From positions 8,751 through 72,750 of the forward strand of contig MFVE01000008.1 of NCBI GenBank assembly GCA_001785985.1: 64,000 nucleotides of DNA, in the 5' to 3' direction. The position numbers and the translations under genes are program-made. Numbering within the stretch: position 1 is the stretch's first letter; every line of letters begins with the position of its first letter. Below the pieces are notes generated by a model. It was not told where the DNA came from. It ran no database searches and saw only the letters and a list, made by a program, of their open reading frames with translations. Shown piece by piece: positions 19,377 through 55,026 of the stretch. The DNA comes from Candidatus Nomurabacteria bacterium RIFCSPLOWO2_01_FULL_42_17. GTDB taxonomy: Bacteria > Patescibacteriota > Minisyncoccia > Phycocordibacterales > UBA9973.

Positions 19377-20084
19377 TTAATCATCATTAAAGTGAAAGTC
19401 GATTTCTTCTAAATTATCACGTCTATCTTTAAAAGATTTCTTCCCCCTACTCTCTCGCACTATATCAATTATTTCTTTTCCGTGTCGGTAAAAATTTTCA
19501 TAACCGCCAAACCATTCAAGAAATTTATTTCCTTCTTTGGGATTTATAATAAAAAAATTACCTTTTTCATATTCTTCTTCACTACTACGCACTAATTTTA
19601 ATTTATTTTTTGAAATATTATGCACTTTATAATTCCACATTACATAAGCAAAAATCATTTCAAAATAATTTTCCTTTTCAGCATAATTTGATTTAAATTT
19701 CCCTTGAAGCAACGCTCCGCTTCGCCGATTTTTGTCATTAAAATATCTTGTGTATCCTCCTTGTAATCTTTTCATAAATTCACTGATACCGCCATCAATT
19801 TCCTGTTTTAAAATAAAATGAAAATGATTCGGATTAAGACAATATTCAACAATAGAAACCAATCTTTCTTTATTTTTAGGAATTTGGAGACGTCGGACGT
19901 CTACAAATGATTCTTGTTCGCGAAGTGCTAGTTCTAAACTTCCCACAGGATCTTTATAGGAAAATAATTTCATAGATAATAAAAATCTTGCAGCATCTTT
20001 TTCATCCATGAAAATAGAGCGCTTATCAACGCCTCTATTGTAAATGTGGAAATAAGAACCAGAAATAAAGGGATGTTTTCTCAT
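19377..20084 (-). CDS. IS200/IS605-like HUH (Y1) tyrosine transposase of the REP-associated (RAYT/COG1943) type
   Basis: 235 aa. YHIYNRG first-strand block, HUH motif NHFHFIL, and a C-terminal LLQGKFKS...Y..AYVMWN helix region matching the LWQ.R(F/Y)..H...YIH.NP catalytic-Tyr region of RAYTs. Paralogous to 54271-55026. Confidence 0.7.
   Translation of the reverse strand: MRKHPFISGSYFHIYNRGVDKRSIFMDEKDAARFLLSMKLFSYKDPVGSLELALREQESFVDVRRLQIPKNKERLVSIVEYCLNPNHFHFILKQEIDGGISEFMKRLQGGYTRYFNDKNRRSGALLQGKFKSNYAEKENYFEMIFAYVMWNYKVHNISKNKLKLVRSSEEEYEKGNFFIINPKEGNKFLEWFGGYENFYRHGKEIIDIVRESRGKKSFKDRRDNLEEIDFHFNDD
19888..19908. repeat. REP1 palindrome copy (GAGACGTCGGACGTCTACA) embedded in-frame in RAYT1, encoding VDVRRL
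   Basis: Near-perfect copy, read directly. It lies about 200 bp from the gene's 5' end in the loop between the YHxYNRG block and the HUH motif. Confidence 0.8.
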
Positions 20085-20100
20085 ATCTTTAGTATATCAT

Positions 20101-20121
20101 TGTAGACGTCGGACGTCTACA
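20101..20121. repeat. REP1 palindrome copy (TGTAGACGTCGGACGTCTACA), 5' flank of RAYT1 / 3' flank of murG
   Basis: Perfect palindrome. Confidence 0.8.
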
Positions 20122-20124
20122 CGG

Positions 20125-21267
20125 TTATTTCTCGTGGCTCAAAGCGATATCCACGAGAGCGCGAGCGATTTTCATCGCCGCATCATGTTTAGCAAAGGCT
20201 TTGGCGCTCTGTACCATCGAGTCGTAAACTCCTTTGTCCCCCGTTATCCTTTCAATTTCTGAGCTCAAAATATTGGCTGTCATATTCATTTCTTCTACTA
20301 CACTGCAAGCGCCCGCGCGAGCATAATTAAACGCATTTTTTTTCTGATGATCCATGTTGGTATGTGTGATCGGTATCAAAATGGATGGCACACCCCAAGA
20401 GGCTATCTCAAAAAGCATTGACCCCGCTCGAGAAATGATGATGGTGGCCGCGCCGGCAGCCATTTTCATCGCGAGAGGATTCAAAAAAGCCACCGAAAGA
20501 TACCTGGTCTTGTATTCATTCTCACTTAGCACGACTTCCGCCCTGTTCGTCACGCTCGTAAAATTCCTGACACCCGTCTGGTGGATAATCTGATAATTAT
20601 TCACCAATCTAGGCAATGCATCTAAGATAGTATTATTGATAAGTTCCGCGCCTTGAGAACCTCCCAAGACGAGGATCACTGGCAAACTCCCTTCAAGCTT
20701 AAAATAATCCAGCGCCTCTTTTTTAGGAGCAGGATTTTCTATTTCTGTTCTGATAGGCTGGCCCGTCCAAGCGATTTTTTTCTTTGGGAAGTGATCAGCC
20801 GCTTCTATGAAAGAAACAGCGATTTTTTTGGCAAAATGGCCAGCCCACCTATTCACCCGCCCCGGAGTAGAATCTGATTCATGGATCACTATTGGAATAC
20901 GTAAAATTCTCGCGGCAAAAATCGCCGGAAACGAGGCATATCCGCCCTTGCCAAAAACAACGTCTGGATAAATTGAAAACATTTTATAAAGCGCATTCAC
21001 GGTACCAAAAAAAATCTTTAAAATATCCCGGATATTTTTTAAAAAACTTTTAAAAGAAACATGGGTGCGCATTTTGCCAGTCTTGATCTCTTCATATATC
21101 AGCCCATTTTCAAAAAGCATTTCCTTGTCATAAGGATTGTCCGAGATATAGTAAAGCTTGGGCCCTAATATATTCTCGTGATCTATTATTTGATTGACTC
21201 TCTCGGTAACGGCAATAATGGGATAAAAGTGACCGCCCGAACCACCGCCTGTAAAAACTATTTTCAT
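20125..21267 (-). CDS. murG: Undecaprenyldiphospho-muramoylpentapeptide beta-N-acetylglucosaminyltransferase
   Basis: GT28 N- and C-terminal domains (MKIVFTGGGSGGHFYP, GGSQGA). The likely start is MKIVF at 21267, inside the longer ORF-track call. Confidence 0.88.
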   Translation of the reverse strand: MKIVFTGGGSGGHFYPIIAVTERVNQIIDHENILGPKLYYISDNPYDKEMLFENGLIYEEIKTGKMRTHVSFKSFLKNIRDILKIFFGTVNALYKMFSIYPDVVFGKGGYASFPAIFAARILRIPIVIHESDSTPGRVNRWAGHFAKKIAVSFIEAADHFPKKKIAWTGQPIRTEIENPAPKKEALDYFKLEGSLPVILVLGGSQGAELINNTILDALPRLVNNYQIIHQTGVRNFTSVTNRAEVVLSENEYKTRYLSVAFLNPLAMKMAAGAATIIISRAGSMLFEIASWGVPSILIPITHTNMDHQKKNAFNYARAGACSVVEEMNMTANILSSEIERITGDKGVYDSMVQSAKAFAKHDAAMKIARALVDIALSHEK

Positions 21268-21280
21268 ATACTTTATAACT

Positions 21281-22390
21281 TTATGAACTTTTTGCTTTAT
21301 AACTACTTTTAGATACCTGCAACACGATGCCAATCGCCATGAGGTATATCATGAGCGAAGTGCCCCCATGGCTCATGAAAGGAAGTGGGACGCCGGTCAA
21401 TGGAAAAACTCCAGTAATCGAAGCAATGTGCATAAATGACTGCACGGTAATCAGTATAACAATTCCAGAGACCAAAAGTCTACTAAAGAGATCCGGAGCA
21501 CTGTTCCCAATACGAAATCCACGCAGGGCAAAAAGCACATAGATAAATATGACACTGGCCGCTCCGACAAAACCCAGCTCTTCACCCACTACGGCAAAAA
21601 TGGAGTCCCCTTGCGGTTCTGGAAGATAACTGAACTTTTGAATGCTTTGACCAAATCCCCTGCCGAATATTCCACCTGACCCCATGGCAATCAGCGATTG
21701 TTGAATTTGATAGGAAGATCCCCTAGGATCGGCAGATGGATCGATAAAAGTTTTTACTCTCTCTTGCAAATAGGGCGTAAAAAAAATTAGAGTTCCCAAA
21801 AGAAATACTCCCCCGACACCCACTCCTAAAATATATTTAATAGGAACACCGGAGATAAAAAGCATCACGATTCCAGTTACGGTGATTAAAATAAAACTTT
21901 TAGTATCGGGTTGTTTAAGTAAAATGACAGCGATGAGCGCGAGCATTATAGTAAATGGCAGAATTCCAAACTTGAAATCCTGCACTTTGTTCTTTACCCA
22001 AGACAGCCAAGCGGCAAAATAAATCACGAATCCCAATTTTAAAAATTCCACCGGCTGAAAAGAAAAACCACCGAGCTCTATCCATCTTTGCGCGCCACCA
22101 TGACTCCAGCCAAAGTGGGGTATAAAAACAGCGGCGGTTAAAAGTATTGATCCTAAAAAAATCAAAAAAGAATATTTGCGCCAAAACTTGTAATTTATTT
22201 TTGAACAAAAATACATGAGAGCGAGCCCAACCCCAAGACCTAAAACCAGCTGGCTAAAAAGAACTGAGTAAAAAGTTTTTGCATTTTTAGCCAAGATCCC
22301 CAAGGACGCAGAAACAAACATCGCAACTCCAAAAACAACAAGCAGAAATATTATTATCAGAAAAAATCTATCTATCTTCTTTTCTCTCAT
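21281..22390 (-). CDS. ftsW: SEDS-family peptidoglycan glycosyltransferase (FtsW/RodA)
   Basis: 369 aa, about 10 TM helices. Conserved SEDS loops (QPVEFLKLGFVIY, LPEPQGDSIFAVVGEELGF). Sits between mraY and murG. Confidence 0.85.
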   Translation of the reverse strand: MREKKIDRFFLIIIFLLVVFGVAMFVSASLGILAKNAKTFYSVLFSQLVLGLGVGLALMYFCSKINYKFWRKYSFLIFLGSILLTAAVFIPHFGWSHGGAQRWIELGGFSFQPVEFLKLGFVIYFAAWLSWVKNKVQDFKFGILPFTIMLALIAVILLKQPDTKSFILITVTGIVMLFISGVPIKYILGVGVGGVFLLGTLIFFTPYLQERVKTFIDPSADPRGSSYQIQQSLIAMGSGGIFGRGFGQSIQKFSYLPEPQGDSIFAVVGEELGFVGAASVIFIYVLFALRGFRIGNSAPDLFSRLLVSGIVILITVQSFMHIASITGVFPLTGVPLPFMSHGGTSLMIYLMAIGIVLQVSKSSYKAKSS

Positions 22391-22398
22391 GATTTAAT

Positions 22399-22430
22399 GA
22401 GGCAAGACCTAACATGTTAGGTCTTGCCTC
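22399..22430. promoter_or_regulatory. 32-bp perfect palindrome GAGGCAAGACCTAACATGTTAGGTCTTGCCTC, filling most of the 44-bp mraY-ftsW spacer
   Basis: Reverse complement checked base by base. No T-run follows on the minus strand, so it is not a canonical terminator. Confidence 0.6.
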
Positions 22431-22434
22431 TAAC

Positions 22435-23490
22435 TTATCTGCTTATAATTGCTAAAATTATACCGATAATGGCAAAGATGACGGAGATAATCCAAAAACG
22501 CATCGTAACCTTGTAAGAAGACCAGCCAATTGCTTCAAAATGGTGATGAAGCGGGGCAAGTTTGAACAATCTTTTTCCTCCTCTAAATTTTTTCGAGGCC
22601 ATCTGTAAAATAACCGAAGCAGATGTGAGAACTAGGGGCAAAGCGACAATGGGAAGAATAAAAACTGAATCAGTCAAAAATGCCAGCGTCGCGAGGGTAA
22701 TAGTGAGGCCCATGATGCCCGTCTCTCCCATAAAAAATCTAGCCGGAGGAATGTTGAACCACAGAAATGCCAAGATCGCCCCGGTAATAACGGCTGAAAA
22801 TGCGGCGATATCGATCTGATTGTTGGCATAAGCTATCGCCGAGTAAGCGGCAAAAATAGATGCTAAAACCCCTCCAGAAAGTCCATCGATCCCATCTATC
22901 ACTCCCCCGGAAAAAGTAGCCAAGGCGACGATGATAAAAAATGGAACAATTAAAATGCCTAAATAGATTTCTCCAAAAAAAGGAATATGCAGCGAGGTTA
23001 TGCCTAATTTATAAAAAAACCACATTCCTATCATAAGAGACATAAAGGTAATGAGAAAGACTTTCCATTTGCGCCAAGATTTATCGTCCCGAGCAAACCT
23101 GCCGCTGCCATAAATCTGAATCAAGTCGTCCCAAAGCCCGATCAATGACCCTATCAAAAGCGTAAAAATAGGTATGAGGGTTTGATTGCGGCTCAAGAAA
23201 TTTATTTCAGAACTATAGCTGGAAGGAAAGAAAATTGAGGCTAAATAAAAAATAAGCGTGGTCGTCAAGACAGAAATCCAGATGATCACCCCGCCCACTC
23301 TGGGTGTGCGGAGTTCCTCCTTCTCTTTATTAATCTTTTGAAAATCTGAAGTGGTTCCGTTAGCGCTCCTAGAATACCTCTTCCACATTTTATATTTGTA
23401 AAAAAAATGAGTCGCGATTGGAGTAAAAAAAAGCCCGAAAAAAAATGCAACCGCTGTCGGCAAAAATATTTTGATTAAGCTGAAATACAT
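22435..23490 (-). CDS. mraY: Phospho-N-acetylmuramoyl-pentapeptide transferase
   Basis: 351 aa polytopic membrane protein. LRTPRVGG, NAIDGIDGL and PLHHHFE motifs of MraY/GT4. Confidence 0.85.
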   Translation of the reverse strand: MYFSLIKIFLPTAVAFFFGLFFTPIATHFFYKYKMWKRYSRSANGTTSDFQKINKEKEELRTPRVGGVIIWISVLTTTLIFYLASIFFPSSYSSEINFLSRNQTLIPIFTLLIGSLIGLWDDLIQIYGSGRFARDDKSWRKWKVFLITFMSLMIGMWFFYKLGITSLHIPFFGEIYLGILIVPFFIIVALATFSGGVIDGIDGLSGGVLASIFAAYSAIAYANNQIDIAAFSAVITGAILAFLWFNIPPARFFMGETGIMGLTITLATLAFLTDSVFILPIVALPLVLTSASVILQMASKKFRGGKRLFKLAPLHHHFEAIGWSSYKVTMRFWIISVIFAIIGIILAIISR

Positions 23491-23526
23491 ATATCCACTA
23501 TACCATTTTTTGATTAAAATGCATCA

Positions 23527-24390
23527 ATGTGCTATTGTTTTCAAGTGAAAAAACATATTTCTAAACTTGCATTGTCTTTCGCCACATTTCTTTTTGTATT
23601 CCTGTTGTTTACACCCTACTTTACGACAGACTTCATGGATTTAAGACAGCAAAAAGAAAACGAGGAAAATTATCAAAGATTTCTGCAAGAAAAAATTGCG
23701 CAAGAAATTGCAAAAAGAAACGCTGAAGACAAAATCTACTTGACTGGCAAATTTGACCCGAATCTGCGGGAAGATTTTGCTCTGGTGCCCTCACAATACA
23801 ACATCGCCAGATACAAGATGTATTTAAGAAAAGAGACTTTGGATGCTTTTGGGGACATGGCAGAAGCTGCCGCAAAAGATTCTATAGAATTGAATATAAC
23901 TTCCGCTACCAGAAATTTTGATTACCAAAAAGATCTCTGGAATAGAAAGTGGGACAGCACGACGTTGGCAGAAAAAAAAGATCTATCAGAAGACATGCTC
24001 GATGAGATAAAGAGGTTTAAGAAGATATTGGAATATAGCGCTGCTCCCGGCACATCTAGACATCATTGGGGCACAGAAATAGATATTAATAGCGTAACTC
24101 CAAAATTTTTTGAGACAAGCGAGGGTAAAAAAGTATACGAATGGCTCCAAGTAAATGCTCCCGTCTTCGGATTTTGCCAGACTTATAATGAAAAGGGTGA
24201 AAGCAGACAAGCCGGGTACAACGAAGAAAAATGGCATTGGTCCTATATGCCACTGTCCCGAACTCTCACGCAAGAATATAAAAAATTGATAAAAGATGAA
24301 GACATCACAGGATTCTTGGGCGACCAATATGTCCCCGCTTTAAATTTAATCAATAATTATGTACTCAACATCAATCCTGATTGCTTTTAA
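23527..24390 (+). CDS. Peptidase M15B (VanY/D-Ala-D-Ala carboxypeptidase-like), secreted or anchored
   Basis: 287 aa. N-terminal TM or signal segment. SATRNFDYQ and AAPGTSRHHWGTEIDI zinc-ligand motifs of M15B. Confidence 0.7.
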   Translation: MCYCFQVKKHISKLALSFATFLFVFLLFTPYFTTDFMDLRQQKENEENYQRFLQEKIAQEIAKRNAEDKIYLTGKFDPNLREDFALVPSQYNIARYKMYLRKETLDAFGDMAEAAAKDSIELNITSATRNFDYQKDLWNRKWDSTTLAEKKDLSEDMLDEIKRFKKILEYSAAPGTSRHHWGTEIDINSVTPKFFETSEGKKVYEWLQVNAPVFGFCQTYNEKGESRQAGYNEEKWHWSYMPLSRTLTQEYKKLIKDEDITGFLGDQYVPALNLINNYVLNINPDCF

Positions 24391-24964
24391 CTTCTTCCTC
24401 TAAATTCTTTGCCGCAACATCTATGGAATTTATAACTTCAGCATAGCCGGGCAGTTCTTCTACTGATTTTATACCCATAAAGGAGATCAGCTCAAAACTT
24501 GGTTTGTAGATAAAGCGCCTATTGTCTTTCGGATCTGTTATTTTTTCTACCAGCCCGCGGACGGACAAAGCGCGCAAGGTGAAGCTCGAATTCACGCCCC
24601 GGATATAATCAATCTCGGCGCGGGACACTCCATTTTTATAAAGCACAATAGACAGTGTTTCCAGACTTGCCTTGGAAAGTTCTTTATTCAGTTCTTCTTT
24701 CTGTAAATTCTCAATCAGATCGGACAACTCTGGCGCCGTGCCGAGCATAATTTCCCCGCCTGCATCAGCTATGCTTGAAGCATTGCGGGCAGGTTTTTCT
24801 TTTTCCAACAAAACTATCCCCCTGTCTTTTAAATTTTCTTTTAATTTTTCTACACCTTTGTTTATTTCTGTCTCTTCAACTTTCAAAATCTCCGAAAGTT
24901 TTTTACGTGCAATCGGCTCCCCTTTCCAAAATAATATAGCTTCTATCTTTTTTTCTATTTCCAT
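24371..24964 (-). CDS. scpB: Segregation and condensation protein B
   Basis: 197 aa with tandem winged helices (IEAILFW...). Carries one copy of the 40-bp element, encoding PARNASSIADAGG, at 24754-24794. Confidence 0.85.
   Translation of the reverse strand: MEIEKKIEAILFWKGEPIARKKLSEILKVEETEINKGVEKLKENLKDRGIVLLEKEKPARNASSIADAGGEIMLGTAPELSDLIENLQKEELNKELSKASLETLSIVLYKNGVSRAEIDYIRGVNSSFTLRALSVRGLVEKITDPKDNRRFIYKPSFELISFMGIKSVEELPGYAEVINSIDVAAKNLEEEVKSNQD
24754..24794 (-). repeat. Copy A of the ~40-bp GC-rich hairpin element, sense-oriented in scpB and encoding K-P-A-R-N-A-S-S-I-A-D-A-G-G
   Basis: Plus strand CCCCGCCTGCATCAGCTATGCTTGAAGCATTGCGGGCAGG. Inner mini-hairpin ATGCTT-G-AAGCAT. Confidence 0.65.
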
Positions 24965-24969
24965 AAATT

Positions 24970-25719
24970 TTAATTTGCAATTTGCTCCTGCTTATTAAAT
25001 ATAATATCCCCCTTATCGCCTTCTTGGACCGCATCGATAATTCCTTGCCTCACAAGCTCTAATAAAGCCAAAAATCCGACTATCGCAACCACTTTTTCCT
25101 CCCGAGTCGTTATTTTGCCGTGCAAATCTTTAAAATTCATTTTCAGAGAATTTTGTATTCTTTCGGTAAGCCGATCGATCATCTCTTCAATACTGATGAC
25201 TTTGCGCACTTCCACCTCCGGCAAAAATACTTTCTTTGGCATTGAGCCTAGGACATTTTGAGCAAAACCCATCATGCTTTCTTTTGTAATTTGCGCATCC
25301 GGCAAAAATACTAGAACATCACTCTTTCTTTCAAGTGGCGCAAAAATTATGTTTTTACCAAAATTGTTTTTGATATTTCCTCCAAGTTTTGTAAAAAGTT
25401 CGTACAATCGCAATCTCTCCTCCAGATTTTTTATATCACCTTCTTCCTCCAACGTCAGATTCAGATTAGGCAAAAGTGATTTTGATTTGATCAAAATAAG
25501 GGTTGAGGCCACTAAAATAAAACTAGCGATTTGGGCAGAAGAAATCGAACCAGAAGCGCCAAGTTTGTTCATGTAACTCAAATAATCTTCCGTCACTGCC
25601 GAGAGCGAAACATCGTTTATGAAGAATTTGCGTTTTTCTATCAATTCCAAAAGCAAACCAAACGGTCCTTCAAAATTTGCCATTTTTATTGTATATGCGT
25701 GCTCCCTTTGGGTTTCCAC
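24970..25719 (-). CDS. scpA: Segregation and condensation protein A (kleisin)
   Basis: 249 aa. ScpA N-terminal (LIEKRKFFINDVSL) and C-terminal winged-helix regions. Immediately upstream of scpB. Confidence 0.85.
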   Translation of the reverse strand: METQREHAYTIKMANFEGPFGLLLELIEKRKFFINDVSLSAVTEDYLSYMNKLGASGSISSAQIASFILVASTLILIKSKSLLPNLNLTLEEEGDIKNLEERLRLYELFTKLGGNIKNNFGKNIIFAPLERKSDVLVFLPDAQITKESMMGFAQNVLGSMPKKVFLPEVEVRKVISIEEMIDRLTERIQNSLKMNFKDLHGKITTREEKVVAIVGFLALLELVRQGIIDAVQEGDKGDIIFNKQEQIAN

Positions 25720-25741
25720 CCTTATATGCTAGCATTTCTTT

Positions 25742-28249: not shown

Positions 28250-28325
28250 GATAGTTTTTATGATATAATACGAGAAACGTACAAACAGACCCTCATGGTC
28301 TTCACAATTTAAAAAAGGAAACAAA

Positions 28326-29051
28326 ATGAACAAAAACAACTCGGGGGAGTATTGGGATTCCCGACTCACCCAAAGTCCGGAAAATCCATTCCCCTTAGCC
28401 CCTAAAGACTGGATTGAAAAAGTGATGGCTAAATGGAAATCTGGTAATGATGCAGAAAGGGGGAAGTATGAGAGAAAGTATCGGAAAGAAAATCGACGGT
28501 TCGGAAATTTCTGCCGCAAAAAGATGTTGGTCGAACTTAAAAACATGGATCCTGGCAGGATAAATGTTTTGGGTTTAGGCCTTCGAAGAGACATTGCGTG
28601 GACGGAAATGGCCGTTAGAATGGGGTTCGGAGTCAGTATCTGGGACATGAGTCGATTTGCGTGTGAAAACGCAAGGCGAGAGCTAATGATATTGATGAAC
28701 ATCACCCAAGTCGAGATAATGGCTGGTTGGAAATCCGGGGAAATCGATGAACAGGATGCAGTAGCATATTACGCCTGTCAATTCATCGAACACCAGGGTG
28801 ACGAATTACCAATGTTCATGCATCATTTGGGAGAATTTCTCCGGGTTCCTGGACGCAAAGTTTATTTAATCCTTCCACGTCTGGAAGACAATCCGTCCAA
28901 TAAAGTAAAATGGAACTCGGCTTCCCCACCTCTCGACCACCAATGGCAGAAACCGTTACTGGAAGGATTCGGGGGGCAACTCAATATTTATGTCTTAGGT
29001 AAGCATAAATATTTTAACCGGATGTATACATTTGTCCGGATCAGCATGTAG
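28326..29051 (+). CDS. Hypothetical protein, compositionally atypical (about 45% GC). Possible degenerate class-I SAM methyltransferase fold.
   Basis: 241 aa. INVLGLGLRRD resembles MTase motif I with the Gly-rich loop degenerated. DAVAYYACQFIEH and LRVPGRKVYLIL resemble motifs II and III. The terminator-like hairpin AGGGAG...CTCCCT plus T-run at 29064-29110 follows. Confidence 0.35.
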   Translation: MNKNNSGEYWDSRLTQSPENPFPLAPKDWIEKVMAKWKSGNDAERGKYERKYRKENRRFGNFCRKKMLVELKNMDPGRINVLGLGLRRDIAWTEMAVRMGFGVSIWDMSRFACENARRELMILMNITQVEIMAGWKSGEIDEQDAVAYYACQFIEHQGDELPMFMHHLGEFLRVPGRKVYLILPRLEDNPSNKVKWNSASPPLDHQWQKPLLEGFGGQLNIYVLGKHKYFNRMYTFVRISM

Positions 29052-29159
29052 AAAAAATCACTAGGGAGGGAACGAGGACAATCTCTTCTCTCCCTTTCTT
29101 TTTAAATTTAGTATAATCCCAGTAGTAGAGCAAAGCTCACTACAGGATAAATAAAAAAA

Positions 29160-30380: not shown

Positions 30381-30589
30381 ACTTTTTGTGCATAAGTCTG
30401 TGGAAAAAGTTAATATAGATTTAATAATTGAAGTTATCCACATCTTATTCACAAAAAGATGCAAAAGAGCTAATTTTTGATATTGACAACAATATTCATA
30501 AAAAGTTAATATTAAAACTAGGTTAAGTTTTTTAAACAAACTAAATCTAAAAAGTCGATCAACATTAAAAAATTACGAAGAAATAAAAT

Positions 30590-30838: not shown

Positions 30839-30839
30839 A

Positions 30840-32105: not shown

Positions 32106-32130
32106 ACTTTTATATTATATCAAGAATCAA

Positions 32131-32463: not shown

Positions 32464-32469
32464 AAAAAA

Positions 32470-35054: not shown

Positions 35055-35062
35055 TTTAGAAT

Positions 35063-39977: not shown

Positions 39978-39983
39978 TCAGCT

Positions 39984-40595: not shown

Positions 40596-40596
40596 T

Positions 40597-40953: not shown

Positions 40954-41049
40954 ATGGCTCATATTATATGAAATTTCATAAAAAGGCAAGCCCCGCCTCA
41001 TTGAAATTAAAAATTTGGCGGCGGGGCAAGTATTTGATATACTTACCCT

Positions 41050-43849: not shown

Positions 43850-43858
43850 ATAATTTTA

Positions 43859-44437: not shown

Positions 44438-44440
44438 ATA

Positions 44441-45517: not shown

Positions 45518-45524
45518 AAATTAT

Positions 45525-46994: not shown

Positions 46995-47093
46995 AATTTA
47001 TTATTGTATCATATTCCCCTCTTGAGGGGTGGCTTTAGCCGGGGTGGAAAATCCATCCACCTCCCCCTAAAGGGTACTCCTCAAGAGGAGAAC

Positions 47094-48755
47094 TTAGTAC
47101 ACTTCTTGCTGATAACATTTCTCACAATAGACTATTTCTGGACGCTCGGGAGCATAATTTGTAGTTATTTCTTTTTTACATTTCACGCAATTACGATCCC
47201 AGAATTTATATGGACCGCGATGCGTAATGCGGTCTCGGTGGCGACAATAAAAACATTTTCGCGGTATCGGAAGGTTCATTTTTCGATAAAATAAAAGCTC
47301 TTGATTGATGATTTTATAATTACGATTGCAATCTATACACTTTAAAATTTCATCCGTGATAGAGTCTGACACATCTTTTATATGATCTGGAATATCCTCT
47401 GGTTTCATCGTTTCCTTCCCTTCTGTTTTTTGGATATCATCTTCCCATCTAAAACCAGTCTTTAGCACTTCCTCTTTTGTCATAGGCATATTGTCTTGCG
47501 CAATACTTTCGTTATAAGCAAAAGGTGCAAGCTCAGGTGGAATCATTAGCCCATATAAATCTTTTTGTTTTAATTCTTCAATTATTTTCGCTCGCAGTCT
47601 CTCATATTCTTCTTTTGAATACTGTTTATTTAAAATTGAATATTCGCCATGATGTAACGCGTCGCAACCGATGCAATTTTTACAATTTCTGACATAAAAT
47701 CCATATAAAATATCTGTAGAATTCTCTGCGCCATATGTGCCAATCACATTACTACATAGACCGGTGGCAACCACTTCAAGCATTCGTTCTGATTTAGTGC
47801 CATAGCCGATAGTGTCCATAGAATCCTTGACTCCTTTTGAGGAAAATATATATCTAGAATCTTCTGCATTGGTAGCTTCAAAAGAATCTTTAACATTTTT
47901 GCACTCAAATAAATAATCTCCAGTGGAATTGACTGTCTTAATATTATTATTTTCGCGCATTGGAAAATCTAGAATGAATTTTTGAAATTCTTTTTTGAAT
48001 TCTTCTATCTTTTCATAACTGCCCATGATTTCACCCACTTTTTTCTTATACTCTTCTGGCTGCATTGGGTGATTAAAAAAATAATACGATTTATTATTTA
48101 AATTCACACAACCGAAACAATTCATCAATCCTCGGCAATTTAAAACAAAAGCAGAATCCACTGAACCGGTGATATTTTGGCCAAAAAGTATGCCCGCAGA
48201 CTCTTGAACATTTATAGATTCATAACATCTTTCAAAACTGGTGCCAAAATACATATCAGATGAATCATTACCATGCCTGACTCCCCTTGAATAAAGTAAT
48301 TCTTCGGCCGGACTAGTATTAAAAACTAAATAGCAATTTCTACAGCCAGTAGACATATTTGTGTATTCACTATTCACGTTTGCTCCGGAACCCAGAGAAA
48401 TATATGTAGTAATTTTTGGCACTTTTTTGAGAAGCTCGCCGAACTGCTCTAAAAAAGATTTATTTTCATCATAGTCCATCGCGTAATTTTTCGGCTCCCA
48501 TTTTTCGGAGTAAAAACAATCGTAGCAATAAATAGTGTAGGGAGATTTTGGATTATACATAGAGATAATACCCTTCCCGCAAAGTCCGCACTGACGTCCA
48601 GAATAAAGAGTCGTCTCATTTCGAAACATCGCGCGCATTTTAAAACGGCACGGAGGGCAGACTTTTGGTGATGGCACCTTCATCTTTTCATAAAATCCAA
48701 GATCGTCCAAATCTAGAATAAAATCTTGCCTGCATTTTTTACAATTTTGCTGCAT
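47094..48755 (-). CDS. Cys-rich protein with duplicated FYxK-x2-(V/L)P-x-P-x2-C-x2-CR zinc-ribbon modules at both ends (copy A, partly degenerate Cys repeats)
   Basis: 553 aa. N-terminus CKKCRQDF...FYEKMKVPSPKVCPPCR. C-terminus FYRKMNLPIPRKCFYCR...CVKCKKEITT...IVYCEKCYQQEVY. Two internal YSILNKQYSKEEYE-type blocks. Paralogue of 55602-57308. Confidence 0.6.
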   Translation of the reverse strand: MQQNCKKCRQDFILDLDDLGFYEKMKVPSPKVCPPCRFKMRAMFRNETTLYSGRQCGLCGKGIISMYNPKSPYTIYCYDCFYSEKWEPKNYAMDYDENKSFLEQFGELLKKVPKITTYISLGSGANVNSEYTNMSTGCRNCYLVFNTSPAEELLYSRGVRHGNDSSDMYFGTSFERCYESINVQESAGILFGQNITGSVDSAFVLNCRGLMNCFGCVNLNNKSYYFFNHPMQPEEYKKKVGEIMGSYEKIEEFKKEFQKFILDFPMRENNNIKTVNSTGDYLFECKNVKDSFEATNAEDSRYIFSSKGVKDSMDTIGYGTKSERMLEVVATGLCSNVIGTYGAENSTDILYGFYVRNCKNCIGCDALHHGEYSILNKQYSKEEYERLRAKIIEELKQKDLYGLMIPPELAPFAYNESIAQDNMPMTKEEVLKTGFRWEDDIQKTEGKETMKPEDIPDHIKDVSDSITDEILKCIDCNRNYKIINQELLFYRKMNLPIPRKCFYCRHRDRITHRGPYKFWDRNCVKCKKEITTNYAPERPEIVYCEKCYQQEVY

Positions 48756-48765
48756 AGTTTTATAT

Positions 48766-49068
48766 TTATGCGCTAATATACTGATACTGATTCATAAATT
48801 TATAAGAAAAAGGTTCTGCGTATTTTTCCAAAATACGTCGCTCAAAAGCATCCAACTTATCGTAGCCAAGAATAAAATTTTTAATTACGCTCCATTCTTC
48901 GCGTCCGGCCGGTTTAATATCTTTAAAAGATAAAATGTTATTAACTATGCCCAGCGCGCGATTTTTTGCATTCTCCGCGGCCTGCACTTTATGTGAATCA
49001 AAAAAAGAAAAAAGTCTGCCTATTTCAGGATATAAGTTCGCCATATAAAAAAGAGAGTTCTTTTCCAT
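48766..49068 (-). CDS. Hypothetical protein
   Basis: 100 aa. Its ATG is supplied by the 83-bp palindromic element. Confidence 0.4.
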   Translation of the reverse strand: MEKNSLFYMANLYPEIGRLFSFFDSHKVQAAENAKNRALGIVNNILSFKDIKPAGREEWSVIKNFILGYDKLDAFERRILEKYAEPFSYKFMNQYQYISA

Positions 49069-49143
49069 CCCAGTACTAAAATTTTAAATTGTTATTAATA
49101 TTGACCATTTGTTTTACTCAAAAATTTAGTACGGGACAGGTAA
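49063..49143 (-). repeat. 83-bp imperfect-palindrome intercistronic element, copy Y (reverse complement of copy X). Supplies the ATG of the 48766-49068 gene.
   Basis: Arms CCATCCCAGTACTAAAATTTT and AAAAATTTAGTACGGGACAGG are identical to the reverse complement of the copy X arms over 21 nt each. Confidence 0.6.
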
Positions 49144-49144
49144 A

Positions 49145-49495
49145 TTATTTTAGATCAATAAACTTATAAATAATCTCTGTGGCTTTTTTTGTCGTTTCTT
49201 CATTATTTATTCCACGCGAGCGATTACCAGAGTTTGGTTTAATATTAACCATAGAATCAAATTCTAAAACTCCATCAGGATTTTCCTCAAAACGAATATT
49301 AAAACCCCACACATCTTCAAATTTTGAACCAGAAGCCGTCAGCATTTCTGAAGATTCAATATGATAATCCCCTCCCAAAGCAACTCGTCCAAGCTCGACA
49401 TCAACAGTGCCCTTAATCATCGTGCCATACCAAAAATCAGCCATTTTTTTTACTTCTTCCATGCTTATTTTATTATCTAAAATTTGTATCTTCAT
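49145..49495 (-). CDS. Hypothetical protein
   Basis: 116 aa with no confident family. Confidence 0.4.
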   Translation of the reverse strand: MKIQILDNKISMEEVKKMADFWYGTMIKGTVDVELGRVALGGDYHIESSEMLTASGSKFEDVWGFNIRFEENPDGVLEFDSMVNIKPNSGNRSRGINNEETTKKATEIIYKFIDLK

Positions 49496-49501
49496 TTAAG
49501 T

Positions 49502-51610
49502 TTATTCTAAAATCTTCCGCAAGACATCTTCTGGAACTTCTTTTACTTTTTCAGCCTTAGGTTGACCAGCCTCGGGCTGGGGTTTTTGAGGTATAGAAAT
49601 GGGTAGAGGAGATGGCGCAGTTTTTGATGAAATTAAATCCTTCAATTTATTCATATCCTCCGAGCTCGCGGCGCGATCAGAGCCTGTGTGGATAGGCTTG
49701 GCAGAGACAGATTCTTTTATTTTTTCTTTTAGGGCATCAAGTGAAACAGGTGCTGGAACGGGTTCTTTTATCACTGATTTCTGTGGGGCAGCTCCGTCAC
49801 TAGTGATTTTATTTAGCACTTCTCGTAACGCTAAATTTTCCTCACCGGTGCGGGCAGGTTTCGGCTTTGGAGCTATGAAAACTTTTTTAATAGCCCCGAG
49901 AATCCCAGGTTTGGGATTGATATTAGAATGAATCGTATTTGAATGCGTACCTGCTCTAAAAGGAGGCTTAACCCATTTTTTATCTAGATGATGATCCTCC
50001 CTCTCTGGATATCTTTCTTTTTCTTCATCAATATTTTTTTCCTTTTTCTCGAATTCTATACCCAAATCGGCTAGTGGTTTGAAAAAAGTGACCTCATCAT
50101 GCTTGATCTGATTTTCGGAGCCTTTTTCTACCTTTACTTCGCCAGATTTTATTTTAGCGATGCAATCTTTGCAATAAACAGCTCGGCCCGGATCGGGTTT
50201 GAAGGGCACGGTCGTTTCTTTTTTGCAGAGCGAACAAATAGCTGGAAATTTTTCTAGATTTCCGCTTCCAGTGTCGGACTCGTTGCCGAGGGACATTCCG
50301 CTCCAATTATTGATCTCTCTCTCCACCACTTCTTTGCTCTTGCAGTAAAGGGCGCGCGAAGAACGGATCACTTCTTCTTCGATCTTTTTATCGCCGGACT
50401 TCACTAGAGGTGGCAAAGTTTTGGCGGAAAAGGGACGAGAAGTAACCCCGTCGATCATCAGCTTTAGATAAATTTTATAATTCGGCAAGTTTACTATGTC
50501 TTGCGGGGTGAATTCCGGGTCAAATTCGGGCTCTAAAAATTCTGCATCGTCCGCCCCAACCCGGAAAACTATCGTCGTACCAACGTTGCCGAAAACGGCG
50601 TCTCGCACAGCTGAACTTTTATCTACTACGAGCTGAGCAGTATATTGATGGGCTACGGTGAGGTTGAGTCTGTATTTTCTAGCTTCCGAAAGAATTCCGG
50701 CGAATGCGTCCGTCACGAAATTTTGAAATTCATCCACAAAAAGATAAAAATCTTTTCTACTTTCTTCGGGAATACGCACCCGTTCCATCGCCGCTAGCTG
50801 AATCTTGGTAATGATCATACCGCCCAGAAGCCCGGAATTGTCTTCACCAATGCGCCCTTTGGAAACGTTTACTAAAAAGATCTTGCCTTCGTTCATCATG
50901 TCAAAAATATTTATCGTGCTTTTGGATTGACCGACGACATTTCGAATGATGCTGGTGGAGAGAAATTGCCCGACTTTATTTTGAATCGGCGCGATTGCTT
51001 CGTTTCGAAATTTATCCTGCCAGGCCTCGTATTCGTGTATCCAGAAAGCCTTGATGACCGGATCTTTTAAATTAGAAATTATTTTTTGGCGGTAATCTTT
51101 GTCCACCAACATTCTGGGGATACCGAGGAGAGTCGTACCCGGAGTGTCGAGTAAGGCCAAAATCGCATTGTTTAAAATATATTCCATTCGAGCGCTCCAA
51201 GCATTCGCCCAAATTTTAGTAAAAATTCCCATCAGACCCGAAGCCACCAAATGTTTGTATTGCGGATCAATCAATTCTAAAACATTAAAGCCGATATGAT
51301 GATCTGCGTCGGCTGGATTGAAATAGACGACGTCTTTGACGCGCTCGGGTGGAATGGCCGACAGGACTGCTTCGACATTTTCTCCATGAGGGTCAACCAT
51401 GCAGACCCCATCTCCATTTTTGATATTCTGAATAATCATGTTGAACATCAAAGCCGATTTACCTGTGCCGGACTTTCCAAGAATATAAACATGCTGACGC
51501 CTGTCTTTGCGCTTGATGCCAAAAAGCTGATTCCTGTCGCGATAAGTGCTGACTCCGAGATAGGTAATCTCCTTATTCTGAGGTATTTGGGGTATTTCTG
51601 GCAGATCCAT
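49502..51610 (-). CDS. Soluble HerA/FtsK-superfamily P-loop ATPase, copy B, with a C-terminal zinc ribbon and a Pro/Lys-rich tail
   Basis: 702 aa. Walker A ILGKSGTGKS then MVDPHGEN, Walker B LFVDEFQN, AHQ motif. The C-terminal ribbon CSLCKKETT...VYCKDCIAK matches the C-terminal ribbon of the Cys-rich proteins. Confidence 0.7.
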   Translation of the reverse strand: MDLPEIPQIPQNKEITYLGVSTYRDRNQLFGIKRKDRRQHVYILGKSGTGKSALMFNMIIQNIKNGDGVCMVDPHGENVEAVLSAIPPERVKDVVYFNPADADHHIGFNVLELIDPQYKHLVASGLMGIFTKIWANAWSARMEYILNNAILALLDTPGTTLLGIPRMLVDKDYRQKIISNLKDPVIKAFWIHEYEAWQDKFRNEAIAPIQNKVGQFLSTSIIRNVVGQSKSTINIFDMMNEGKIFLVNVSKGRIGEDNSGLLGGMIITKIQLAAMERVRIPEESRKDFYLFVDEFQNFVTDAFAGILSEARKYRLNLTVAHQYTAQLVVDKSSAVRDAVFGNVGTTIVFRVGADDAEFLEPEFDPEFTPQDIVNLPNYKIYLKLMIDGVTSRPFSAKTLPPLVKSGDKKIEEEVIRSSRALYCKSKEVVEREINNWSGMSLGNESDTGSGNLEKFPAICSLCKKETTVPFKPDPGRAVYCKDCIAKIKSGEVKVEKGSENQIKHDEVTFFKPLADLGIEFEKKEKNIDEEKERYPEREDHHLDKKWVKPPFRAGTHSNTIHSNINPKPGILGAIKKVFIAPKPKPARTGEENLALREVLNKITSDGAAPQKSVIKEPVPAPVSLDALKEKIKESVSAKPIHTGSDRAASSEDMNKLKDLISSKTAPSPLPISIPQKPQPEAGQPKAEKVKEVPEDVLRKILE

Positions 51611-51721
51611 ATAATGCTATTTTACAATAAAATGGCTCTTTGCGCTAATTTAACTTGACTTTTGTCTAACTTTAGAATACACTGGGAGTGTAAATGCTTT
51701 CCTTGTCGAAAGCTCCGAGAA

Positions 51722-51764
51722 ACCCCCGAAAGGGGGTTTCGTATTTTATAAAATACTCCCGCCC
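51722..51764 (-). terminator. Terminator-like hairpins just downstream of the dnaK stop (GCCCC-CGGA-GGGGC with a U-rich tail on the minus strand, and AAACCCCC-GAAA-GGGGGTTT)
   Basis: Both stems were read directly. Confidence 0.4.
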
Positions 51765-51788
51765 CCGGAGGGGCTTTTAGGAAAAATT

Positions 51789-53699
51789 TTATTTCTTCGG
51801 CGCCTCGCCTTCAGGCTTCTCTCCTTCTTTGAATTCCGCATCTTTTACTTCCGCTGGTTGCTCTTCTGGAGCTCCGGCTGGAGGAGTAGTCGTACCACCA
51901 GCCTTTTGTATTGCTTCCCCTATTTTGGACATTTCAGCCGAAAGTTCTTCGGTCGCTTTTTTGATTGCCTCTCCATCCGTGCCATCTTTAGTAGTTTTGA
52001 GCGCGGTAATTTTCATATTGACGCTGTCTTTTAATTCCGCCGGAATTTTAGCTTCGTTATCTTTCAACGCCTTTTCAGCGGTATAAATAATCATCTCTGC
52101 GGTATTTTTCACATCCACCACATCTTTTTTCTTTTTATCTTCCTCAGCGTGCATTTCCGCGTCTTTCTGCATTTTTTTAATTTCCTCATCTTTGAGTCCA
52201 GAGCTTGCTTCTATTTTGATCGATTGAGTCTTGCCAGAAGCTTTGTCTTTCGCCGTGACATTCAAGATTCCATTCGCATCCACATCGAAGGAAACCTCGA
52301 TCTGCGGCATACCGCGAGGCGCTGGTGGAACTCCGTCTAAAATAAATCTTCCTAAAGATCGGTTGTCAGACGCCATCGGACGTTCTCCTTGAACTATATG
52401 GATCTCTACGCTAGTCTGATTGTCAGCAGCCGTAGAAAAGACTTGAGACTTGCTGGACGGAATGGTCGTATTCCTCTCGATTAATTTGGTCGCCACTCCT
52501 CCGAGCGTTTCGATGCCGAGAGAAAGAGGAATGACATCGAGCAAGAGAACATCGCGCACATCTCCGGCGAGTACGCCGGCCTGCACCGCCGCGCCGAGCG
52601 CCACCACTTCGTCCGGATTGATAGACATATTCGGCTCTTTGCCGAAAAGATTTTTCACTGCCTGCACAATCGCCGGCATTCTGGTTTGTCCGCCCACCAT
52701 GATGATTTCATTTATTTCTTCCATTTTGAAAGGTGAAGCCGCTAGTGCCCTCTTGGTGATCTCAATCGAACGATCAATCAGATCTTTCGTGAGAGATTCA
52801 AGTGTGGCACGAGACATCTTCATCAATAAATGCTTCGGTCCTCCAGCATCCGAAGTGATGAAAGGAATATTTATTTCTGATTCAATGGTTGTAGAGAGTT
52901 CATGCTTTGCTTTTTCCGCAGCCTCACGAAGTCTCTGATGAGCAAGCGGATCTTTAGTTACATCAATGCCAGATTCTTTTTTATATTCTTCCGCAATCCA
53001 CTTCACTATCTTTCGATCAATATCGCCTCCGCCCATGTGACTGTCGCCATCTATAGATTTAACCTCAATAACATCACTGCCTATCTCGAGCACGGACACG
53101 TCAAAAGTTCCTCCACCAAAATCATAAACCACAATCTTTTCATTTTTCTTTTTATCAAATCCATAAGCGAGCGCGGCAGCCGTCGGCTCGTTTATAATTC
53201 TTTTTACATCTAATCCCGCGATCGCTCCGGCATCCTTGGTCGCTTTTCTTTGCGCATCATTAAAATACGCCGGCACGGTGATAACCGCTTCGGTTATTTT
53301 CTCTCCGAGCTTTGCTTCCACATCTGTCTTTATTTTTTGCAAAATCATCGCAGAAATTTCTTCCGGTCGGTAAAATTTATCTGTCATTTTAACTTTCACT
53401 CCGCCGCCATCGCCTGCTTCTATTTTAAACGGCGCGGTTCCGCGGTCTTTTTGCACTTCCGGATCGTCAAAACGATGCCCCATCAGACGCTTAATTTCCG
53501 CAATTGTATTTTCTGGATTTGTAATTGCTTGCCTTCTAGCTAAAAGCCCGACAATCCGATCGCCATTTTTTGCAGTCGCCACCACCGAAGGCGTCGTGCG
53601 ATTACCTTCAATATTTTCAATAATCTTCGGCGCGCCTCCTTCGATGACAGCGACCGCTGAATTTGTTGTACCCAAATCTATACCTATTATTTTTGCCAT
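51789..53699 (-). CDS. dnaK: Chaperone DnaK (Hsp70)
   Basis: The likely start is [14 protein letters not shown] at 53699; the ORF-track N-terminal extension is spurious. Full-length Hsp70 signatures. Confidence 0.93.
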
Positions 53700-53876
53700 A
53701 TGTTTTATTTTATTAACTAATAAATTTATTAATTTTAAAAAATCAACGCTCCCAAAACGAAACCAACTATAAACCAAAAGATAATGAGCCTAGTTCCTGT
53801 TTTTTCTAATAATCTTTTTTGTTCTGCTAACGTATCATTTACATTTTTTTCGTACATATATTTTATATAAAATTAA

Positions 53877-54167
53877 TTAATAATTATTTAAATTTAATTT
53901 AACTACGAACCAACTAACAATAATGCTAATAATTATCGGTATTAATAAATTCCATATTGTTTTTGGTAACCAAGATTCTCTTTTATCGATTAAAAAATTT
54001 CTTTTATGCTCTAAAATTTCTAATCTATGAACTAATGGTTTTTTTGCTTGGTCAAATTGCCCATCAAGGATTGATTGAGGTATGGGTTTACGCAATTTGT
54101 TGGGCAAATCAAAAATCTCCTCCTTTATTTCTAATATTTCTTTTTCAATTTTATAGAACTTACTCAT
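53877..54167 (-). CDS. Hypothetical small C-terminally anchored protein
   Basis: 96 aa with a single C-terminal TM helix. Confidence 0.35.
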   Translation of the reverse strand: MSKFYKIEKEILEIKEEIFDLPNKLRKPIPQSILDGQFDQAKKPLVHRLEILEHKRNFLIDKRESWLPKTIWNLLIPIIISIIVSWFVVKLNLNNY

Positions 54168-54270
54168 ACGCGATAATTATATACCCATCTTTAATTTTTA
54201 GCAAGTTTTTCGTGACCACGAAATACTTGTCAAAAGTTAGTACATAGTATAAGATATAACATGTCAACTT

Positions 54271-54291
54271 GTGGAGGACGGTCCTTCACAG
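54271..54291. repeat. REP2 copy (GTGGAGGACGGTCCTTCACAG), 5' flank of RAYT2
   Basis: One mismatch from a perfect palindrome. Confidence 0.75.
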
Positions 54292-55026
54292 TATGATATA
54301 AATATGCAACGACCTCATACATTTTCTATCGACGAGTACTATCATTTATATAATCGCGGAACTGACAAGAGATCTATTTTTCTAGATGTTAATGATTATC
54401 ATCGATTTATTATGCTTCTCTATCTTTGTAATACAATCGAGCCATTTGATATGCAAAAGATTTTCCGCACTAACGGTGAAGGACCGTCCTTCACAGAAAT
54501 ATTTAAACTTCATCGAGGTCAGCCCATTATTTCCATAGGCACCTGGGTACTCATGCCAAATCATTTTCATCTATTGGTAAAAGAAATAGCTGAAGGAGGA
54601 ATCACGACATTCATGCGAAAAGTGAATACTGGATATTCAATGTATTTTAATAAAAAATATGGGAGAACGGGAAATCTATTTCAGGGAAAATTTAAATCAG
54701 AACATGCCGATAATGATAATTATCTTAAGTATCTTTTTTCATATATCCATCTTAATCCAATAAAATTAATCAGAGGCGAGGATAACTGGAAAGAAGTTGG
54801 AATTACAAATCTAAATAATGCAAAAGATTTTTTATCTAAATATGAATACTCAAGTCTGCCTAGTTATCTAACTATAAAGACTAATTTTAACAAAATTATT
54901 CAGAAAGATTTATTCCCTGAATATTTTCCTGATCCAAATAATATATGGGATGATATGACAGAATGGCTTACTTCTAAAAAAGAACCCGAAGAAAAAATTA
55001 TGAAGGACGGTCCTTCACAGAAATAA
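54271..55026 (+). CDS. IS200/IS605-like HUH (Y1) tyrosine transposase of the REP-associated (RAYT/COG1943) type, paralogue 2
   Basis: 251 aa. The start may be the internal Met at 54304. YHLYNRGTDKRSIF block, HUH motif NHFHLLV, and LFQGKFKSEH...YLFSYIHLNPIKL matching the RAYT catalytic-Tyr helix. Peptides GEGPSF and KDGPSQK are encoded by REP2 copies. Confidence 0.75.
   Translation: MEDGPSQYDINMQRPHTFSIDEYYHLYNRGTDKRSIFLDVNDYHRFIMLLYLCNTIEPFDMQKIFRTNGEGPSFTEIFKLHRGQPIISIGTWVLMPNHFHLLVKEIAEGGITTFMRKVNTGYSMYFNKKYGRTGNLFQGKFKSEHADNDNYLKYLFSYIHLNPIKLIRGEDNWKEVGITNLNNAKDFLSKYEYSSLPSYLTIKTNFNKIIQKDLFPEYFPDPNNIWDDMTEWLTSKKEPEEKIMKDGPSQK
54475..54498. repeat. REP2 copy (GGTGAAGGACCGTCCTTCACAGAAAT) embedded in-frame in RAYT2, encoding GEGPSFTE
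   Basis: Perfect 8-bp arms. Same loop position as the REP1 copy in paralogue 1. Confidence 0.8.
55002..55025. repeat. REP2 copy (TGAAGGACGGTCCTTCACAGAAAT) overlapping the RAYT2 stop
   Basis: Perfect palindrome. Confidence 0.8.

Follow-up and report, generated by a model that had tools for sequence, protein, structure and literature searches.

The stretch of DNA analysed here, hereafter the window, is a 64-kb segment of a contig from Candidatus Nomurabacteria bacterium RIFCSPLOWO2_01_FULL_42_17. It holds two genes, gene 1 and gene 2, for RAYT-like proteins of the Y1/HUH superfamily (RAYT, REP-associated tyrosine transposase; REP, repetitive extragenic palindrome). Each gene is bordered by copies of a short palindrome of its own, and the claim of a first-pass annotation that a further copy lies in frame inside both genes was confirmed. 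The features are listed in Table 1, in which coordinates are positions in the window and the gene strand is given where relevant. The hairpin sites are called U (upstream), A and B (internal) and E (end), after four folding peaks in the gene family that are described below. A gene together with its hairpins is called a cassette, and related loci are cited by their L numbers.

Table 1. Genes, hairpins and promoter element at the two loci of the window.
Feature	Position	Strand	Remarks
Gene 1	19377..20084	(-)	Y1/HUH RAYT-like protein, 235 aa; YNRGVDKR block, NHFH, Tyr helix, C-terminal extension
Hairpin U, cassette 1	20102..20120	(-)	GTAGACGTCCGACGTCTAC on the gene strand; ends 17 nt 5' of the ATG
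-10-like hexamer	20091..20096	(-)	TATACT, preceded by TG (extended -10); ends 6 nt before the ATG of gene 1
Hairpin A, cassette 1	19886..19904	(-)	In frame, F-VDVRRL-Q; 180 nt after the ATG; one outer-stem mismatch
Hairpin E, cassette 1	19353..19371	(-)	Loop inverted; 5 nt past the stop codon
Kinase-like gene	18357..19343		Downstream of gene 1
Gene 2	54304..55026	(+)	Y1/HUH RAYT-like protein, 240 aa; NHFH, LFQG, YIHLNP
Hairpin U, cassette 2	54272..54288	(+)	1 mismatch; followed by TGATATAAA and then the ATG
Hairpin A, cassette 2	54476..54494	(+)	In frame, G-EGPSFT-E; 172 nt after the ATG
Hairpin E, cassette 2	55001..55017	(+)	Within the last codons, MKDGPSQK-stop
Partner gene	55031..55558	(+)	Protein with winged helix-turn-helix (wHTH) and PaaX_M (Cas2-like) domains; directly downstream of gene 2
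Fourth copy of hairpin 2	55121..55139	(+)	In frame, VKDGPSQK; turn of the helix-turn-helix (HTH) of the partner protein

The two proteins are 38% identical in a pairwise alignment. Both contain a YNRG-DKRSIF..RF block followed by a variable stretch, the NHFH motif and the Tyr helix, and the peptides encoded by their internal hairpins fall within one gapped stretch of the alignment. Membership of the Y1/HUH superfamily is indicated by the profile scores (Pfam Y1_Tnp PF01797, 33.2 and 31.6 bits, with the cutoff at 23), by the HUH motif and by the catalytic Tyr on the following helix; NHFH and Y147 are invariant in an alignment of 49 sequences. With the NCBIfam equivalog model NF047646 (REP_Tyr_transpos), gene 1 scores 28.1 bits and gene 2 scores 43.8 bits, both below the 80-bit cutoff. 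A profile sequence search of the PDB gave no match at E<=0.01, and a fold search was then used, in which the best solved structure was 4er8_A, the complex of E. coli RAYT with REP; the transposases of IS608 and ISDra2 ranked next. The AlphaFold2 (AF2) model of gene 1, with a predicted local distance difference test (pLDDT) of 80.5 and a predicted template modelling score (pTM) of 0.80, has 4er8, 2a6m and 2vjv among its fold matches. Pfam gave no HTH in either protein at E<=0.01. The start of gene 2 is the ATG, as in its relatives; an alternative GTG at 54271 falls within the upstream palindrome.

Palindrome 1, GTAGACGTCSGACGTCTAC, is present in 3 copies in the 64 kb, compared with 0 expected from shuffles, and palindrome 2, TGAAGGACSGTCCTTCA, is present in 4 copies, compared with 0.08 expected. 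As DNA, each of the 7 copies forms a hairpin with a loop of 3 nt (-5.4 to -8.3 kcal/mol). Chance, or a protein motif whose codons happen to be palindromic, has only the short length of the palindromes on its side and can practically be dismissed: these counts speak against it, the same sequence recurs outside the open reading frame (ORF), and the peptides encoded by the internal hairpins are unrelated among clades (VDVRRL, SGVQHP, LGGRTSK, PKALS and GEGPSFT), with all three frames being used. Hairpin 1 has a REP-type 'double foot', GTAG...CTAC, in which the GT[AG]G feature is present, and hairpin 2, GTGAAGG...CCTTCAC, has no GTAG or GTGG foot. The central loop base of hairpin A of cassette 2 is C, compared with G in the other copies, while the 3' tail CAGAAATA is common to hairpins A and E and the fourth copy of this cassette. 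In hairpin A and the fourth copy, palindrome 2 itself spans 54477-54493 and 55122-55138. The gene that follows gene 1 has its ATG (19343) 8 nt beyond hairpin E of cassette 1.

Within the 64-kb window, neither palindrome was found outside the two loci, and the flanking DNA of 82 related loci contains only 24 copies in 390 kb (0.06 per kb). Therefore, 'REP', the term used in the first-pass annotation, overstates the case and serves here as a loose label; a dispersed REP population was not demonstrated in the window.

Two other kinds of palindrome were noticed. A perfect, loopless palindrome of 32 nt, GAGGCAAGACCTAACATGTTAGGTCTTGCCTC, lies at 22399-22430 between two minus-strand genes, just upstream of an ftsW-like gene; an unrelated contig from Patescibacteria (L154, 4445-4466) contains the same 22-nt core. 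A second, GC-rich palindrome family, CCCTCTCC..GGAGAGGG and CCTCCCC..GGGGAGG, is scattered near several loci (positions relative to the gene), namely L112 (~-1833, -1796 and -1384), L131 (+1277), L099/L100 (-1194 and -1162) and L171. It is not cognate with the local hairpin and may represent another REP-like family.

Fixed hairpin sites in the gene family

At the thresholds used, database searches gave more than 2,200 protein homologues for gene 1, nearly all of them in Nomurabacteria, Paceibacteria and other Patescibacteria, and more than 5,600 for gene 2. We sampled 80 homologous loci from genomes and 80 from metagenomes, and occupancy was evaluated in 149 non-redundant patescibacterial loci; 12 loci with the motif NSNH, NQNH or similar were recovered by tblastn. 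The single-strand folding energy of 82 loci has four sharp peaks, at -40, +180, +460 and +660 nt from the start codon. At these peaks 36%, 23%, 10% and 24% of the 44-nt windows, respectively, fall below -10 kcal/mol, compared with 0.95% in the flanks. Among the 149 loci, a cognate hairpin is present at E in 98, at U in 92, at A in 82 (55%) and at B in 22 (15%), and at no other position in an intact gene. The other variable loops and the poorly conserved C-terminal third contain no insertions in any of these loci. Hairpins at U and/or E are found in most of them. Genes 1 and 2 each have copies of a gene-specific palindrome on both sides, the arrangement by which RAYT genes and REPtrons are recognised.

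Paralogues within one metagenome-assembled genome have distinct hairpins, and L170-L172, which are related to gene 2, likewise have sites U, A and E, with their own co-varying hairpin at slot A. About 45% of the homologues are without a hairpin at slot A; for example, L097 has lost it and kept U and E. The survey establishes that cognate hairpins do occur inside the genes of homologues, and the condition that the first-pass annotation had named for its own refutation clearly does not hold. The first-pass argument that two independent random insertions are unlikely is borne out by the recurrence of the same slot in the 82 loci, apart from which only a second fixed slot is used. The longest slot A doublets, with 25-26-bp stems, were observed in L066 (160-465) and L072 (1889-2464), whose ORFs are truncated to 101 and 191 aa, and over-grown internal palindromes may accompany gene decay.

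In the protein, slot A corresponds to a disordered loop that connects the N-terminal beta-alpha unit with the HUH strand, and slot B to the loop after the catalytic-Tyr helix (residues 140-149 in the gene 1 model). The hairpin-encoded residues of gene 1 lie within residues 55-67, the sole internal segment of the AF2 model with pLDDT<50, between a short helix and the strand that precedes the HUH strand. The centre of slot A lies at a median of 29.2 aa past the RF motif, with an interquartile range (IQR) of 27.5-29.4. The value is about 29 aa in gene 1 and, computed from coordinates, about 24 aa in gene 2; the hairpin of gene 1 comes after the shared 'SF' codons, and that of gene 2 overlaps and precedes them. 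Thus the two paralogues do use the same loop, as had been claimed, but not the same codon. Since their slots are about 5 codons apart, the related proposal that the arrangement is older than the duplication is plausible and its pre-duplication origin is uncertain. The linker is 47 aa long with a perfect slot A hairpin and 45 aa long without one. This difference is only about 2 aa, and therefore many of the 'empty' slots may once have contained a hairpin that has since eroded, and need not always have been vacant. The reading frame of the hairpin is constant within clades, for example throughout the clade with the ACTTGG..CCAAGT hairpin.

These positions bear on the idea that insertions occurred recurrently and independently and survived only in permissive loops, with neither a homologous slot nor homogenisation. 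The offset of about 5 codons between genes 1 and 2 speaks for this idea, and in-frame palindrome insertions are known in many genes (PMC3733652). A further point in its favour comes from the partner gene of gene 2. The turn between the two helices of the partner's HTH contains a palindrome in all four genomes (the window, L170, L171 and L172), but it is the RAYT-cognate hairpin only in the window and L170 (~3297-3319); in L171 (~3315-3340) it is an unrelated palindrome with an 11-bp stem, CCCCTCTCCTTAGTAAGGAGAGGGG, and in L172 (~3311-3325) it is the short GCAGGCTGGCCTGC. As the palindromes differ, the same coding slot has been reused. For slot A, however, the left-hand distance has an IQR of less than 2 aa across unrelated hairpin families, the frame is constant in clades and other loops remain without insertions, and we regard independent insertion as improbable.

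Conservation and concerted change of the copies

Among the 6 closest relatives of gene 1, the nucleotide diversity of hairpin A is 0.046, compared with 0.215 for the coding sequence and 0.31 and 0.37 for the two 30-nt flanks. The same is seen at third codon positions (0.14 in hairpin A, 0.53 in the flanks and 0.39 gene-wide), and for hairpin U the diversity is 0.084 against 0.354. Slot A is an island of nucleotide conservation in the most variable part of the gene, and what is shown to be conserved at the slots is the nucleic acid, not the peptide. The stems at slots A and B are often extended by cassette-specific complementarity of the flanks, up to 16-19 bp. No conserved insertion target was found beside the hairpins, only such copy-specific complementary flanks.

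A function at the level of the mRNA, which the first-pass annotation had put forward, is not favoured by the imperfect slot A hairpins of the 149 loci. There is no excess of G.T mismatches on the sense strand, as would be compatible with G.U pairing, the counts being 8 G.T versus 24 A.C. Because many of the slot A mismatches lie at outer stem levels, no positive conclusion is drawn from the excess of A.C. An A.C mismatch on the sense strand corresponds to G.T on the template strand, which is thus 3 times commoner than sense G.T; mutational bias, codon constraint or a function of the other strand could each be the cause.

When the loci are placed in protein-tree order, the outer stem of the hairpin follows the protein clade (ACTTGG..CCAAGT, CAGATAG..CTATCTG, GTCGGGTGT.. 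and GTAGACGT..). The inner stem and the loop, on the other hand, differ among neighbouring loci and agree among the sites U, A, B and E within a locus. The inner 7 nt of slot A are identical to those of a terminal hairpin (U or E) from the same locus in 80 of 90 loci, and to those of one from the nearest relative in 36 of 90 (sign test: own closer in 50, neighbour closer in 2, p = 6e-13). For slot B the corresponding values are 19 of 24 and 0 of 24 (sign test 22:0, p = 5e-7). For example, L094, which belongs to the clade of gene 1 (68% identity), has GTAGGTGT(CCA/TGG)ACACCTAC at all three sites, and in L093 the loop is altered at all three sites. The state of singlet or inverted doublet is also common to U, A and E; where the flanks carry a REPIN-like inverted doublet (L053, L059, L080 and L037), slot A carries a doublet as well, in frame. 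The orientation of the internal loop relative to U and E is arbitrary, and it flips between sister loci (L014/L015 versus L005/L016).

As the match within a locus is far above the match to the nearest relative, we conclude that the copies evolve in concert, which agrees with the proposal that hairpin and enzyme gene co-diverged. Matched compensatory changes at 3-4 sites are implausible by independent point mutation, and some form of DNA-level copying between the sites would be required. From concerted evolution it follows only that the copying process acts on the internal copy, not that this copy is useful. An old insertion that was inherited passively, with no copying between sites, could account for the tightly conserved slot position and for the constant frame in the ACTTGG..CCAAGT clade. 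It does not account for inner stems and loops that differ between close relatives and agree within a cassette, for the switch of all sites in L093 and L094, or for the flips of the loop between sister loci. Moreover, a hairpin left over in an unconstrained loop would be expected to diverge more quickly than the sequence around it, whereas hairpin A is 6-8 times less diverse than its flanks. We consider this alternative very unlikely, even more so than independent insertion.

Some cassettes are mosaics. L026 combines one hairpin type at U and A with a second type at B and E; in both L006 and L019, hairpin U is unlike A and E; L027 and L024 are also apparent mosaics; and in L057 one arm of hairpin U is A-type and the other is E-type. 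These cases hint that hairpins recombine, either internally or with one another. Not every locus follows the concerted pattern: L029, L032 and L079 share a long slot B palindrome, AAGTTTGGTGGCT..GCCACCAAACTT, with a stem of up to 15 bp, which comes from another family than their own U and A.

Cassette limits and the place of the internal hairpins

Upstream of gene 1 there is a promoter-like match, TAGACG-17-TATACT with an upstream TG, in which the -35-like hexamer comes from the 5' arm of hairpin U. In 81 of 148 loci, compared with 9 of 148 control windows, the 30 nt preceding the ATG contain the pattern TGnTAnnnT, and the family-wide median distances to the ATG are 6 nt from the end of the -10-like hexamer and 20 nt from hairpin U. 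From these positions, hairpin U probably overlaps the promoter and the mRNA is probably leaderless, and therefore only A, B and E would be transcribed.

The relatives of gene 1 (78-87% identity) are found in at least 6 unrelated neighbourhoods, and their DNA homology begins exactly at U and stops exactly at E. Therefore, gene-1-type cassettes behave like a small mobile unit. In L167, the closest usable relative of the kinase gene downstream of gene 1 (70% identity), the order is murG-acetyltransferase-kinase without a RAYT gene. Among the relatives of this kinase gene, no clean empty site or target of cassette 1 could be defined.

One allele links the internal and the terminal hairpins directly. 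L096, which shares its neighbourhood with L081-L083 and L088, is identical to them up to U and continues through the loop of U into the sequence that follows A. It corresponds to the L088 allele with a precise 217-nt deletion from hairpin U to hairpin A, by which the promoter and the first 59 codons are gone. As read from these alleles, the junction shows that the internal copy recombines with a terminal copy. At hairpin E, tandem duplications of the 3' arm and its flank were noticed, GACGTCTACAGACA twice in L083 (~4740-4790) and GACGTCTCCAGCCA twice in L084. Those of L084 and L091 lie downstream of the stop codon, and the sister alleles L081 and L082 are single-copy; such duplications could be slippage products or footprints of hairpin processing.

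Genes of the gene 2 type behave in the opposite way. The order dnaK .. gene 2 type .. PaaX_M/Cas2-like gene is kept in four relatives (62-75% identity), and these genes appear to be vertically inherited. A wHTH + PaaX_M gene follows or overlaps every gene-2-type gene examined (L170, 3210-3734; L171, 3198-3791; L172, 3214-3762) and was not seen in the other 166 loci, which suggests that gene 2 and its partner form a conserved two-gene unit beside dnaK/grpE.

Taken together, we favour, with a probability of about 60%, a reading of the sequence data in which the gene is the cargo of a hairpin-bounded unit with internal slots that are self-colonised and continually rewritten. Each gene would be carried in a cassette of about 0.75 kb, in which hairpin U overlaps an extended -10 promoter in its -35/spacer region, a probably leaderless ORF follows, and hairpin E lies on the stop codon or next to it. 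Such a hairpin would most likely be the recognition site of the encoded Y1/HUH enzyme, a predicted pairing that the co-variation and the U x A deletion appear to support indirectly. The same hairpin would be held in frame at one or two fixed slots of the ORF (A and B), and the copies would be kept identical by DNA-level copying between sites. The likeliest agent of this copying would be the enzyme's cut-and-rejoin activity on single-stranded hairpins, or else hairpin-templated strand switching. The internal copies may persist because loops A and B tolerate any short peptide, and a regulatory role may be a secondary addition to the rewritten slots.

Several points weigh against this reading. 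No biochemical activity is known for the clade, and the copying agent is one that we infer. Palindromes are prone to deletion, yet they have long been kept at slot A in 55% of the loci and in paralogues that are only 38% identical, which usefulness would explain more easily. Slots A and B are occupied far above the density in the flanks (0.06 per kb) while other loops are unused, so that either target specificity or selection is needed. Finally, the linker is only 2 aa longer with a hairpin, and many of the 'empty' slots may have been filled before.

An alternative is that the internal hairpin is a selected cis-regulatory site. The enzyme would bind it on the mRNA or on DNA that is extruded or single-stranded, or the stem would slow transcription or translation, and the result would be negative feedback on, or cis-tethering of, a potentially dangerous nuclease, with U and E in the same circuit. 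The hairpin is retained at fixed slots in very divergent homologues, its conservation island includes synonymous sites, and the lengthening of the stems at A and B by their flanks fits such a role, as do the overlaps of U with the -35/spacer region of the extended -10 promoter and of E with the stop codon. REPs within about 15 nt of a stop codon are said to lower translation in E. coli, as reportedly found by Liang and colleagues in 2015, which is a lead and not a test. However, passive homogenisation also predicts equal conservation, the orientation of the loop relative to U and E is random, about 45% of the homologues do without slot A (L097 having lost it while keeping U and E), and the mismatches give no G.U-compatible excess on the sense strand. 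We hold selected regulation to be doubtful, although it is far less easily set aside than the other alternatives. With respect to the first-pass annotation, its overall interpretation is partly supported: chance is out, co-divergence is in, and regulation is unproven.

A bolder extension is that the internal hairpins are working recombination or regulatory sites, which divide the cassette into modules, namely the promoter with the N-terminal unit, the catalytic core and the C-terminal domain. We put this forward only tentatively and think it rather unlikely. If it is true, the family would be a modular, self-targeting Y1 system in which the enzyme, or replication across the hairpins, may excise, exchange or rewrite modules; the U x A deletion would act as an off-switch, cassettes would become mosaic, and the hypervariable inner stem would let specificity be re-addressed rapidly. 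More generally, autoregulation, cis-tethering and a self-inactivation switch are candidate roles of the internal copies, and a role of some kind is rendered plausible by their long retention, their lengthened stems and the promoter overlap of U. For the question of what RAYT-type enzymes do and how they and their hairpins stay matched, this clade offers a minimal system. It has copies at 3-4 sites within 0.8 kb, including the enzyme gene itself, from which co-evolution, copying and recombination can be read in the sequence. It also illustrates that the streamlined genomes of Patescibacteria tolerate palindromes in coding loops.

Comparison with known systems

By its motifs, gene 2 resembles TnpAY1 subclass 2.1 (Bertels group 1, TIRYT; Quentin et al. 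2018). It has NH[YF]H, FQ and Y[IV]HLNP and a length of 240 aa compared with a median of 238, so that it fits all three motifs and the length, whereas gene 1 fits only NHFH and deviates in LQ and YVMWNY. Subclass 2.1 is, however, reported to be without REP-like hairpins and to have HTH-like C-terminal domains, while the present genes have hairpins and no Pfam HTH.

The REPtron (Nunvar 2010; Ton-Hoang 2012; Messing 2012, PDB 4ER8) is similar in that the enzyme gene is flanked on both sides by its own palindrome and co-resident paralogues each have their own; 4ER8 is also the best structural match. REPtrons in species without REP families, as well as in-frame REPs in other genes, have been reported (Di Nocera 2013, PMC3733652). 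The differences are that the NCBIfam REP_Tyr_transpos model matches only below its cutoff, that no dispersed REPs are found in the window, that gene-1-type cassettes occur in unrelated neighbourhoods as insertion sequences do, and that classical REPtrons are not described with internal REPs.

The IS200/IS605 family also consists of small cassettes with subterminal hairpins recognised by a Y1 transposase, and gene-1-type cassettes likewise occur in different contexts. IS200 has hairpins near its 5' end that restrain expression. Here, however, the Y motif is of the class 2 type and not Y---Q, the proteins have a long C-terminal extension (235 and 240 aa compared with about 150 aa), both ends carry one and the same palindrome, multiple identical copies are absent (the two in the window share 38% identity), and gene-2-type genes are syntenic. 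We do not assign the genes to this family.

Another comparison is with the Rickettsia palindromic elements, reportedly described by Ogata in 2000. These elements and the intragenic REPs (PMC3733652) are similarly short in-frame palindromes that add a surface peptide, sometimes at the same site in orthologues. They differ in being dispersed families in many unrelated genes, compared with the presumed enzyme's own gene and its partner here, where the copies moreover evolve in concert with the terminal copies.

The closest precedent is TnpAY1 subclass 2.4, in which in-frame REPs inside their own tnpAREP genes were reported, called 'unique' to this subclass, and read as tolerated surface insertions of probably little consequence (Quentin et al. 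2018, PMC6006769). As in that subclass, the cognate REP lies in frame in its own Y1 gene as well as at the flanks, and the insertion is peripheral in the model (PMC6006769). The 'double-foot' hairpins of subclass 2.4, 5' GT[AG]G ... C[TC]AC 3', also resemble hairpin 1. In contrast, the present clade is patescibacterial with subclass-2.1-like motifs, and its slots lie before HuH (A) and after Y (B). By their motifs (LQ and YVMWNY in gene 1, FQ and YIHLNP in gene 2) the two proteins fall outside subclass 2.4, and co-variation, a deletion allele and cassette boundaries were not reported for it (PMC6006769). The conservation island at slot A is likewise evidence of a kind not reported earlier. A REP in its own gene is thus not unique to subclass 2.4, contrary to the earlier view. 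The family-wide slots found here, in a different clade and at different positions, are a variant of a known phenomenon.

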